Below are positions 12,001 to 15,000 of a DNA stretch of 37,016 nt, one piece after another. Position 1 is the first letter of the stretch; each line of letters opens with the position of its first letter. The position numbers are program-made. Source of the DNA: Thermodesulfobacteriota bacterium (GTDB lineage: Bacteria > Desulfobacterota > Desulfobulbia > Desulfobulbales > SURF-16); assembly GCA_039715015.1 (NCBI GenBank), contig JBDLIE010000027.1, forward strand, positions 1-37,016, in the 5' to 3' direction.

Positions 12001-15000
12001 GATCTCAGGGCGCCGGTTTTTGAAATTAATGAAAATGGCAGCCGTGCCGGTTCCTGGTCACCTGGTCATTCCAGTCTCAAGATTGCTGCCTGGTTGATAA
12101 AGGAGCATAGCTGGGATGTGGTCCTTGAGGTCCTCAAGCATGAGATGGCCCACCAGTATGTCCATGAGGTGTTGCGGCGTAGTGGCGAAAGGCCGCATGG
12201 CGCCGCATTTCAGGAGGCATGTCAGCGGCTGGGAGTGCATCCCCGATTTTGCCGGGCCACCAGCCGGATTCCCCGTCTCATAAGCAGTGCCAAGCGCCCG
12301 CCAAGGGCCATTTTGGCCCGGGTGGAAAAACTGCTGTCCCTGGCCCAGAGCGCCAATGAACATGAGGCGGCCCTGGCCATGGAAAAGGCCAACGTCCTGC
12401 TGCGCAGGCATAATATCAGCAGGCTTGAGCAGGGCAGCGCCGCCGAGTATGACTATCTGATTATCAATGGGGGCAAGAAGCGGATCTCGGCAGTGCAGAG
12501 GACCATTGCTGCCATCCTCAAGGATTTTTTCTATGTAAAGGTCGTAATAGGCCGGCAGTTTGATGCTGCCTGCGGAGAAACCTTCCGGGTCCTGGAGCTC
12601 ATCGGCACGGAGGAAAACCTGGCAGTGGCCGACCATGTTTATTTCTTTTTGACCAATCGGCTGGAGGCCCTGTGGCAAGAATACCGCGCCGCAAAAAATG
12701 CCGCTGGCAGGGAAAAAAGGTCCTATCAGTTGGGGGTGCTCACAGGTTTTCAGGGTCGCCTTCGCAGTCAGGAAGAAGAAATTGTGGCCACTGAAAGGTC
12801 GCTATCAAGTGCTTTGATCTGCAGCCAGGACCACGGCCTTGTCAGCTATTATCACAGTCGTCATCCCCGCCTTAGAAAGGTCAGGCACCGAGGGGCAAAG
12901 GTCTATAGTAATTCCTATAAGGCCGGGGAAGAGGAGGGGAAAAACCTTGTCATCCATAAGGCCGTTCAGTCACAAGGCGTCGGAAGGGCAGCCTTTTTGC
13001 CAATGCCCTGAAATATGGTGATGGCCCAAAACCATGGCCATGGTAAGTAAGAAGAGGTCGACCTGGCGCTGAAAATATGACACAGTAAAATGCCAGATGA
13101 AGGGATATATTTAAGGCACGCCTCGTGCCATTTCTTGGATTGAAGATGGGAAAGATAGATATTCGTTATTGCTTCACGCTTAATCAGGACCACAGAGAGA
13201 TTATTGATCTGCGGATCGATGACAGCACCCTGGAAAATGTTAATCAACCAGCTGCCGATCTTCCAGGGTGGGCCAATCTCGATTTTTGTCAATGTTGCCA
13301 TTGCCCTCTTGATCCAGCTATCCACCCCTATTGCCCCGTGGCAACCAGTCTGGTTGGCGTTGCCAGCCGATTTGAGGAGATTGTTTCCTACGATGAGGTG
13401 AGGGTGACTATTACCACGAAGGAGAGGAAGGTGGGCCACCGGACCACAGCCCAGCGCGCCATCAGTTCCCTGCTCGGCCTTATCTTTGCCACCAGCGGTT
13501 GCCCCCATACCCAGTTTTTTAAACCCATGGCCTGCTTTCACCTGCCACTGGCCACGGAAAGAGACACCATTTTCCGGGTGGCCGGCATGTATCTTTTGGG
13601 CCAGTATTTTCGCCGCACTGAGGGGAAAAGTGAAGACCTGGAGTTCTCCGGACTCAGCAAGATTTATGACAATGTCCATGAGGTAAATATGGGCGTTGCA
13701 GACAGGTTGCGGAGCGCCCTAAACTCGGACTCGTCAGTAAACGCGATCATCTCCCTTGATATGTTTACCAAGGCCCTGCCCTTTGTCATTGAGGACAAGC
13801 TTCTGGACCTCCGCTACATCTTTAATTCTTATTTTTCAGATGAGTTTGAAGAGATTCTTGAGTCATTGCCTTCGGACGTGAAGTGATGTTCTAGGCCAGT
13901 TGATGACTATTTAAGTCCACGGATAATTTGCGATAAATAAAAAAGGCGGCTGGAAAGAAACTCTTTCCAGCCGCCTTTTTTTAATCTTTTCTCCCGAACC
14001 GGGAGATGTTTTAGCGTCAACAGTTATCGTTTATGTCCTGACTGTTTTTGGCCCAGCGAAAGAGATAGTCGTTGACCATGAGTTGCTGATCCATGGTCAT
14101 GCTCTGCCAGGAGCCATCTTTGGCGCATTGCGGATATTTTTTAGTGAATACCCGGTTCCAGGCCTTGGAGGTTTTTGACTCTACCCAGAGAAAGGGGGCG
14201 CCTTTGTCGTTGCCCCGTTTATGACAGCTCTGGCAGACGCTCTTGAATGTTTTGCCTCCCTGGCCCCAGGCGCTGCTCTCCCATGCAAGGGGACCATCGC
14301 CGATTATTCGACAGGTCTTGGTGGTCTCATCAAAACGGGTTTCGGGACGGGCATGGGCCTGAACGGCCATCCCAACTAACAACAAAACAACCAGTGCAAT
14401 CGCTCCCTGCTTCATAACCACCTCCTCTATTACCGTTGATATGGACGTAGCCCTTGGCCCCAGAACAACGGCAAAAAAATAATTGTACTAATCAGTACAA
14501 TACTGATAACCTCCCTGCTGAGGGAGTCAAGTTGTTTTGTAACGACCAGTAAGAAATGCGGCTTGGGTGTAACCATGGGCAGGAAAAAAAAGTTTGACGA
14601 GGCCACGGCCTTGGCTGCGGCCATGCACCTTTTCTGGGAGAAGGGCTATGCCGCCACCTCCCTCCAGGACCTGGAAGAGGCCACCGGCCTGAAGCGCACC
14701 AGCATCTACAACACCTTTGGCAATAAGCGCACTATTTTTCAAAAAACATTGCTTCTGTATCGCCTCCAGGTGGAAGAGCTGCTGGCCGCTATCATGAAAG
14801 AGGAGGCAACCTGTAGGAAAGCCTTGGCCCGCTGGTTAAGGGCAATCATCGATATGCACTTTAGCAAAGACACCCCTGGTGGTTGCCTGATGATTCTCTC
14901 CGTTCTAGAAGGGAGCCAGCATGATCAGGAGACCAAAGAAATGGCAGCTGTTCTCTTTCGCAAGGAAAGGGACATGGTTGCCGCACGGTTGGAACAGGGG

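Follow-up and report, generated by a model that had tools for sequence, protein, structure and literature searches.

The window, that is, the whole 37,016-nucleotide stretch analyzed here, carries a gene for a small exported monoheme cytochrome c whose TGA codon almost certainly encodes a terminal selenocysteine (Sec), read by means of a SECIS hairpin located beyond the stop codon. This assignment comes from sequence comparison across the order Desulfobulbales. The family to which the gene belongs is a real, previously unlisted selenoprotein family with a plausible mechanism, and it may represent a miniature selenium-and-heme enzyme that breaks sulfur-sulfur bonds. The gene and its signals are as follows.

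14011..14415, minus strand: monoheme cytochrome c gene, 134 amino acids with Sec133 (132 if the UGA is a stop)
14421..14427, minus strand: Shine-Dalgarno site GAGGAGG, 5 nt ahead of the ATG at 14415
14350..14415, minus strand: signal peptide (residues 1–22) ending in A-H-A, without a lipobox, predicted from sequence and a helix in the structure model
14311..14313, minus strand: Cys35, in an N-terminal beta-hairpin that is an insertion relative to a wider Cys-tail family; present in 129/149 alignment rows
14221..14235, minus strand: CxxCH heme site (C61, C64, H65), in 149/149 rows; His65 is the sole conserved His
14125..14127, minus strand: Cys97, the proposed distal heme ligand, in 149/149 rows; the same loop has Cys, His or Met in relatives
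14020..14022, minus strand: Cys132, the tail cysteine; a tail Cys occurs in 125/144 Sec-type genes
14017..14019, minus strand: TGA after 132 codons, predicted from the family survey and SECIS core comparison to be read as Sec133
14011..14016, minus strand: Arg134 codon CGC, synonymously variable across the family, and true stop TAA (14013-14011)
13990..14006, minus strand: predicted bSECIS hairpin, entirely 3΄ of the true stop, with 7 bp, a GGTT-type loop, –10.8 kcal/mol and compensatory changes; core common to the FdhA, HdrA, MvhD and SelD sites
13939..13981, no strand assigned: terminator-like 20-bp stem between the cytochrome gene and a convergent DUF6901 gene, distinct from the SECIS

Residue numbers count from the ATG at 14415 (counting from an upstream GTG adds two), which we took as the start because the GTG overlaps the Shine-Dalgarno site. 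The gene end reads Cys132-TGA-Arg-TAA, followed by the hairpin, whose loop begins 17 nt past the UGA, and then by the separate 20-bp terminator. Two paralogs, g00054 on contig C1 and g01896 on contig C31, have the tails Y-TGA-R-TAG and C-G-TGA-TGA, respectively, each with a hairpin. A preliminary description of this locus had given the three endings as C-U-R, Y-U-R and C-G-U, and the same endings and hairpins were read here. The fourth paralog, g00037, has an aromatic tail and a TAG, with no hairpin, tail Cys or Sec, which also agrees with that description; it retains Cys97.

We parsed 150 family genes among the matches listed in genomes of the order, leaving out 18 weaker matches. Two of these genes were broken (L087 truncated and L141 frameshifted), leaving 148 intact genes, and tails were counted over n = 145, comprising 144 intact Sec-type genes and the 3΄ piece of L141. 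Among the matches listed, 144 of 148 intact Desulfobulbales genes displayed a TGA, a second stop 0–3 codons on and a G-loop hairpin, and the remaining four had other tails without the Sec site and hairpin. The TGA previously reported for 27 of 27 parsed loci thus recurs in the larger sample, but two regularities described for the same 27 loci are not absolute: the second stop fell within one codon in 141/145 genes and after 2–3 codons in the other 4, and the hairpin loop started 16–20 nt past the UGA in 142/145 genes but not in the other 3.

The surroundings of the TGA vary within the family, including the preceding residue, the 0–3 following codons, the Arg codon (CGC 19, CGG 5 and CGT 5, a synonymous variation) and the identity of the second stop (TAA 84, TGA 48 and TAG 13). 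The most frequent Sec tail is C-G-U (83/145). The tail Cys is absent from 19/144 Sec-type genes and was lost at least four separate times on the tree with the TGA unchanged; because the TGA stays where the Cys is gone, it is Sec that carries the function. Two-sided changes were observed at three stem pairs in 18–20 of 76 hairpins, aligned imperfectly, in keeping with the compensatory changes noted earlier. Published features of bSECIS elements are a 3–9 nt loop, a G in its first two positions, a distance of 16–37 nt after the UGA and a folding energy of –7.5 kcal/mol or below (PMC13188914); they were found in their strict form in 133/145 genes and in a looser form in 145/145. A bacterial selenoprotein family is also expected to show TGA at the site in every candidate member, over at least ten examples, and all 144 Sec-type genes have it. 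As a background for this genome, TGA terminates 404 of 1510 long ORFs (27%); among TGA-ending long ORFs, a second stop within one codon was found in 45/401 and such a hairpin in 4/401, one of the latter being the FdhA Sec codon. A metagenome scan with a divergent family member returned one locus, likewise with a TGA and a hairpin.

Ordinary termination at the UGA, with the hairpin serving as a terminator or an mRNA stabilizer, is highly improbable. The first stop is TGA in 144/148 intact genes whereas the second varies freely, and the spacing between TGA and hairpin is fixed. The hairpin always has the loop G, lacks a U-tract, matches the SECIS of this genome and is followed in the window by a true terminator as a separate stem. 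What could be said for an ordinary stop is that no homolog has a Cys at the position, that the 0–3 codons that follow hold little coding signal to test, and that two Cys-tail relatives, described below, have a TGA and a second stop within one codon but no hairpin.

We compared the hairpin with other Sec sites of this genome. A hairpin core common to the family and to the FdhA, HdrA, MvhD and SelD Sec sites was present in 136/145 family genes, in 4/6 tested Sec sites of the genome and in 3.3% of all its TGAs, and was absent after the Sec codons of its peroxiredoxin, DsbA-like protein and MccSep. When 114,818 TGAs were ranked by a hairpin score trained on the family, the three paralogs came 3rd, 4th and 12th; the known Sec sites of the genome were not among its top 70, and we therefore compared these sites directly with the family hairpin. 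The genome encodes selA, selB, selD and tRNA-Sec. A selB match was obtained in 142/151 genomes of the order, and the three family carriers without one have selA, selD and tRNA-Sec. Since the Sec machinery is present in all hosts examined, there is no Sec-negative control lineage. The usual Cys/Sec pair test also fails: as in the preliminary description, a homolog with Cys in place of Sec was not found, no C-C or C-x-C ending occurring among relatives shorter than 200 amino acids (proteins P0002–P0146). Cys-ended relatives terminate where Sec would stand.

In type and in distance from the UGA, the hairpin is a usual bSECIS, and it lies past the stop because the Sec is terminal; a new decoding mechanism is unnecessary. 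The earlier statement that a 3΄-UTR SECIS is unusual for bacteria is correct insofar as such elements are rare, but it was overstated, as they have been published for DUF466/KCU-star (PMC4607533) and SaoC (bioRxiv 2022.07.06.499078). According to these sources, DUF466 proteins end in Cys-Sec-stop with the SECIS downstream, and SaoC ends in UGA-UAG with a 7-bp stem and a GGU loop. DUF466/KCU-star (NF033934) and SaoC (NF040734) resemble the present family in having Sec as the last residue, a double stop and a bSECIS past the stop, and SaoC is also exported. They have no heme and are not homologous, and their Sec aligns with a Cys of CC-ended homologs, unlike that of the family. The window protein matched neither model in NCBIfam or Pfam. 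From the conservation of these elements, it is nearly certain that SelB would bind the hairpin, that Sec would be inserted at the UGA and that translation would end 0–3 codons later; if the UGA were left undecoded, the product would end in the ancestral Cys tail. With 145 natural variants of a SECIS under no coding constraint, the family offers a way to study the preferences of SelB in these bacteria.

Family matches were found in 92/151 genomes of the order, 3 of which are weak matches to the wider Cys-tail family, compared with the 64 of 101 genomes given previously, and the richest single genome had at least eight. Among 301 genomes of the phylum, a sample with few members of the order, matches outside the order were limited to weak ones to the wider family. 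The window protein had no family above cut-off in NCBIfam (20.0), as already noted, and none in Pfam. In a 2026 inventory of 119 prokaryotic families, the heme-c selenoproteins are ExtKL, the GSU2204 family and the octaheme tetrathionate reductase family, and a small monoheme heme-c selenoprotein is absent from its Table 1. We found no description of the family in the literature searched (mostly open papers), and a listing in the BSepDB family table is possible. The family would be a large addition to the known selenoproteins, present in ~60% of the sampled genomes of Desulfobulbales, an order with a central part in the disproportionation and reduction of sulfur; gene annotation truncates its members by taking the Sec codon as a stop.

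The single heme motif, CxxCH, and Cys97 were both invariant, as previously claimed, whereas Cys35, described as near-invariant, was missing from 20 of the 149 rows, all of which keep Cys97. The reported lack of a Met ligand was reproduced: no alignment column exceeded 30% Met (149 rows), and there was no second conserved His. Arg27, Arg36, Trp86 and Trp103 (numbered from the ATG) are conserved. The structure model, built without heme, combines one CxxCH after the first helix, a C-terminal helix and an export signal, which are features of class I cytochromes c. The class I fold proposed earlier is retained, on weak matches (best Z 6.0) that were nearly all c-type cytochrome domains among the top ranks; the model, which includes the signal peptide, had a pLDDT of 85.6 (68–80 in the tail) rather than 89. 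Foldseek gave no match at E ≤ 0.001, and PDB sequence searches matched little outside the CxxCH region. PsbV2 and cytochrome c550 (Z 5.8 and 5.5) share the class I fold and an N-terminal hairpin extension, and the heme of PsbV2 is His/Cys-ligated; these proteins are cyanobacterial and have no Sec, and the window protein scored 17.8 bits against the PsbV model TIGR03045, for which the cut-off is 177.75.

In relatives, the loop ahead of the last helix has Cys, His or Met, with M-P-x-F/W, the usual class I Met motif, in some and H-A-D-W at the same column in others. HHalign paired Cys97 with the loop Cys of the wider family, and MAFFT placed it about three columns ahead of the Met/His column, a point against its role as ligand. 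From alignment, Cys97 is nonetheless probably the distal ligand opposite the proximal His65, which would give a His/Cys heme c of low potential at the CxxCH. We favor this assignment because g00037 keeps Cys97 without a tail Cys or Sec, because 20/149 rows keep Cys97 without Cys35, and because relatives with a loop Met or His retain the tail Cys. In other relatives the loop has a His and the tail lacks a Cys, so that the tail is unnecessary for ligation; the comparison favors a tail that acts as a separate reactive arm, distinct from the heme ligand. Of the thiolate or selenolate chemistry at the heme suggested previously, the thiolate part is supported, and Sec is the less likely ligand.

Alternatively, Sec might be the distal ligand (His/Sec) and replace the terminal Cys ligand of the wider family, with a disulfide between Cys97 and Cys35. 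The retention of Sec where the tail Cys was lost (19/144) would fit this arrangement, as would the wider family, in which the tail Cys is invariant in 14 proteins and the loop Cys occurs in about half; in the structure model, the tail has moderate confidence. Nevertheless, we regard it as rather unlikely, given the 20 rows that have Cys97 without a Cys35 partner, the members that keep Cys97 with neither Sec nor tail Cys, the relatives whose tail Cys persists beside a loop Met or His, and the position of Sec, which ranges from 17 to 22 residues past an anchor in the last helix. A disulfide between Cys35 and the tail Cys was also considered and was rejected, as the two cysteines are lost independently.

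Among 1.84 billion representatives, a profile search matched 75 proteins and disclosed the wider family, a group of distant unnamed monoheme cytochromes with the tail P-x-x-C-[G/K/E], in which the Cys is penultimate. Its profile matched the Sec family at 99.5% (E 2.5e-22). It lacks the N-terminal hairpin that bears Cys35, and no curated model was above cut-off. Stops in 16 genomic copies were 11 TAA, 3 TAG and 2 TGA, and in both TGA copies a second stop followed within one codon and the hairpin was absent. A Sec ending for the wider family was rejected, as 14/16 loci end in TAA or TAG and a hairpin was seen by eye in none. The wider family thus differs from the Sec family in its mostly TAA or TAG ends, in having no SECIS core and in its location within sulfur operons: the neighbors of the 16 copies were an octaheme tetrathionate reductase in 5, YeeE in 4 (one with TusA), PhsA-like or NrfD-type subunits in 5 and DUF3373 only in 2, so that 14/16 adjoin genes for the tetrathionate reductase, for YeeE or for a reductase of the PhsA/NrfD kind, to which thiosulfate reductase belongs; several copies are close kin.

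A tree of 113 of 165 rows, obtained after removal of near-copies and with the tails trimmed, parted the Sec family from the wider family at 100/99. Branching among the deepest lineages of the Sec family, which include the non-Sec members, was not recovered, and the tree therefore does not show the order of events. Because the commonest tail, C-G-U, equals the older C-G tail plus one residue, the tails suggest that Sec was added to an older Cys tail by extension past the stop and was not swapped for Cys. Such a C-terminal extension has been proposed for the Sec of Xenopus SelP and animal thioredoxin reductase (PMC2397514), which carry a mobile terminal Sec arm like the one proposed here. These proteins are eukaryotic, with a distant 3΄-UTR SECIS, and are a flavoprotein or a Se carrier according to the same source. 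The present family provides a bacterial test case for Sec gained in this manner.

Two further features of the window concern regulation.

14575..15159, plus strand: divergent gene for a CifR-related TetR repressor, in which the cysteine of a G-C-L motif is conserved; divergent neighbor in 15/30 closest loci
14482..14509, minus strand: promoter-like site with an overlapping perfect 8+8 bp palindrome (14482-14501), a candidate TetR operator; the palindrome core occurs once in the genome

The palindrome overlaps the predicted –10 site. The G-C-L cysteine is present in all 15 of the closest loci in which TetR diverges from the cytochrome, and this TetR is absent from 20/20 wide loci of other subfamilies. 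Matches to the palindrome at no fewer than 13/18 positions were found upstream of 7/15 TetR-linked genes versus 0/133 others. CifR was the closest named structure (E 6e-22); its Cys107 is needed to sense epoxide, and NEM is sensed too (PMC10827105). Because a cysteine-bearing CifR-like TetR and the palindrome accompany the window clade, a thiol-reactive compound is the probable inducer of this clade; reactive sulfur or an oxidant would fit. Sec-type genes otherwise stand alone among varied neighbors: no conserved sulfur-metabolism genes adjoin them, and a multiheme cytochrome was near 2/20 wide loci. Family genes adjoin MsrAB at 3 loci and a TlpA-like redoxin at 4 loci, and a Sec peroxiredoxin gene follows g00037.

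Could a protein of the same architecture act on another substrate, its Sec serving as the reactive nucleophile in an inducible periplasmic detoxification of peroxides, hypochlorite or electrophiles? The CifR-like regulator with its sensing Cys in half of the 30 closest loci and the MsrAB, redoxin and peroxiredoxin neighbors speak for such a role. It nonetheless seems unlikely, as the regulator is missing from all 20 wide loci of other subfamilies, the wider family is located in sulfur-reduction operons, and a Cys-based sensor could equally answer sulfane sulfur. Soft metals or metalloids (Hg, Cu or As) might be bound at the tail, be it C-U, C-G-U or U, and reduced or sensed by the heme, but we considered this improbable as well: although SaoC and KCU-star have CU-COOH motifs and CU motifs have been tied to heavy metals (bioRxiv 2022.07.06.499078), 19/144 genes have no tail Cys partner for Sec, and metal-resistance genes did not recur among the neighbors scanned. 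If the protein merely carried electrons at low potential and used its Sec tail to dock to a partner through an Se-S bond, it could be small and soluble with a single heme, as observed, and relatives adjoin terminal reductases, as donors often do; yet no partner gene is conserved next to the Sec-type genes, and the conserved Arg27, Arg36, Trp86 and Trp103 suggest a pocket, making this role quite improbable as well.

The closest precedent for the proposed sulfur-sulfur bond cleavage is MccSep, a polysulfide reductase with five hemes. Its Cys239 ligates heme 2, and Sec325 lies 3.6 Å away and attacks the substrate, which shows that polysulfide can be reduced by a His/Cys heme with Sec close to it (PMC13510729). 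MccSep/ExtKL (GSU2937-2936, NF040886) occurs in the same order and the same genome as the family, and is likewise a periplasmic c-type cytochrome selenoprotein with a conserved Cys proposed as distal ligand and Sec apart from it (PMC13510729). It has five hemes, a tetrameric structure, an internal Sec on an Ig-like domain and a SECIS within the coding region (PMC13510729), whereas the family has one heme at one CxxCH, ~110 mature residues and a terminal Sec. NF040886 was not among the NCBIfam matches of the window protein at E ≤ 1, and a likeness in the His/Cys heme would follow from the placement of Cys97 by alignment.

We tentatively favor the view that the family is a soluble periplasmic class I monoheme selenoprotein analogous to MccSep with one heme, in which a His/Cys heme is combined with a mobile Sec arm attacking S-S bonds. 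By this analogy, it is fairly likely that Sec on a loose C-terminal arm would attack an S-S bond in polysulfide or another small sulfane sulfur substrate, hand the adduct to Cys97 and be regenerated by electrons passing through the heme. One heme holds one electron, which counts against the model; the second must come from a partner, or from the tail Cys or Cys35 in members that have these residues. Related S-S chemistry is carried out by the His/Cys hemes of TsdA and SoxA, which resemble the family in a class I heme domain, a proposed reactive Cys ligand and a nearby Arg (PMC6879331). TsdA and SoxA are multi-heme and have no Sec, whereas the family has a single heme domain; their fold matches to the model were weak (Z 4.8 and 4.3), and the window protein matched no TsdA/SoxA family in NCBIfam or Pfam. 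SoxY, the separate carrier used by SoxA, has a C-terminal Cys arm, and a carrier arm like it may be built into the family protein.

No co-occurrence with MccSep was found, as MccSep was present in 25/89 family carriers versus 33/62 non-carriers, kin that are not independent. Both are encoded in this genome, and in the four families in which all 27 sampled genomes carry the cytochrome, no MccSep match was obtained; one could replace the other. A core respiratory role is disfavored because Sec-type genes stand alone and do not co-occur with MccSep. With the cysteine-sensing TetR beside a gene that stands alone, inducible handling of reactive sulfur is more likely for the window ortholog group than core respiration, and the group might be repressed by this TetR, a more weakly held part of the proposal.

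A broader scenario is doubtful as a whole: in an ancestral Cys-Gly-stop cytochrome, the UGA would have been recoded through a SECIS arising in the free 3΄ UTR, with no Cys intermediate, and the Sec arm and Cys97 heme would have rebuilt the MccSep site in one class I domain that may stand in for MccSep where a lineage lacks it. If true, this would be the smallest heme-selenium enzyme, and one gene would give the Sec form or the ancestral Cys-ended form according to selenium supply. At 110 residues, the protein is an easy system in which to study Sec near a thiolate-ligated heme.

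Tandem or near-tandem pairs of the cytochrome genes ending in a proposed terminal selenocysteine were found at loci L091, L097, L100, L109, L110 and L126, where each copy mostly carried its own TGA and hairpin; in some of these pairs, the tail Cys was lost from one copy. One genome contained eight family matches. Broken copies were also observed: L087 lacks the start and is cut off ahead of the tail, and L141 is frameshifted and has kept the TGA and hairpin.

In family members L151, L137, L144 and L260, a tail rich in Trp, Tyr and Phe stands in place of selenocysteine, and Cys97, the proposed distal heme ligand, is retained. 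We speculate that this aromatic tail might resemble either a hole-hopping chain or a signal for sorting to the outer membrane.

Among members of the wider family, Tyr replaces the first Cys of CxxCH in loci L164 and L166 and in protein P0172, one of which also lacks the His of the motif; these sequences could possibly attach heme through a single thioether. The altered cytochrome adjoins an octaheme tetrathionate reductase in both loci. An AraC regulator carrying a DJ-1/PfpI domain is repeatedly found beside other subfamilies (L159, L177, L178 and L187), where it takes the place of the TetR repressor.

The following features belong to the window or to other contigs of its genome:

C1:41569-42780, locus of the non-selenocysteine paralog g00037 (L273)
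C34:5247-6428, MccSep/ExtKL gene with an in-frame TGA (L237)
Window 11483-11902, forward strand, exported glutaredoxin-like protein with a C-P-Y-C motif
C16:57742-58002, distant fifth monoheme relative

A peroxiredoxin-like gene lies 3΄ of g00037 on the same strand, with an in-frame TGA at C1:42379 within a U-x-x-C motif and an accompanying G-loop hairpin. The glutaredoxin-like protein, which is weakly similar to the Uxx-star selenoprotein family, contains no selenocysteine. The relative on C16, which is conserved in the family, possesses a loop His and lacks the tail Cys; directly 3΄ of it lies another exported gene.
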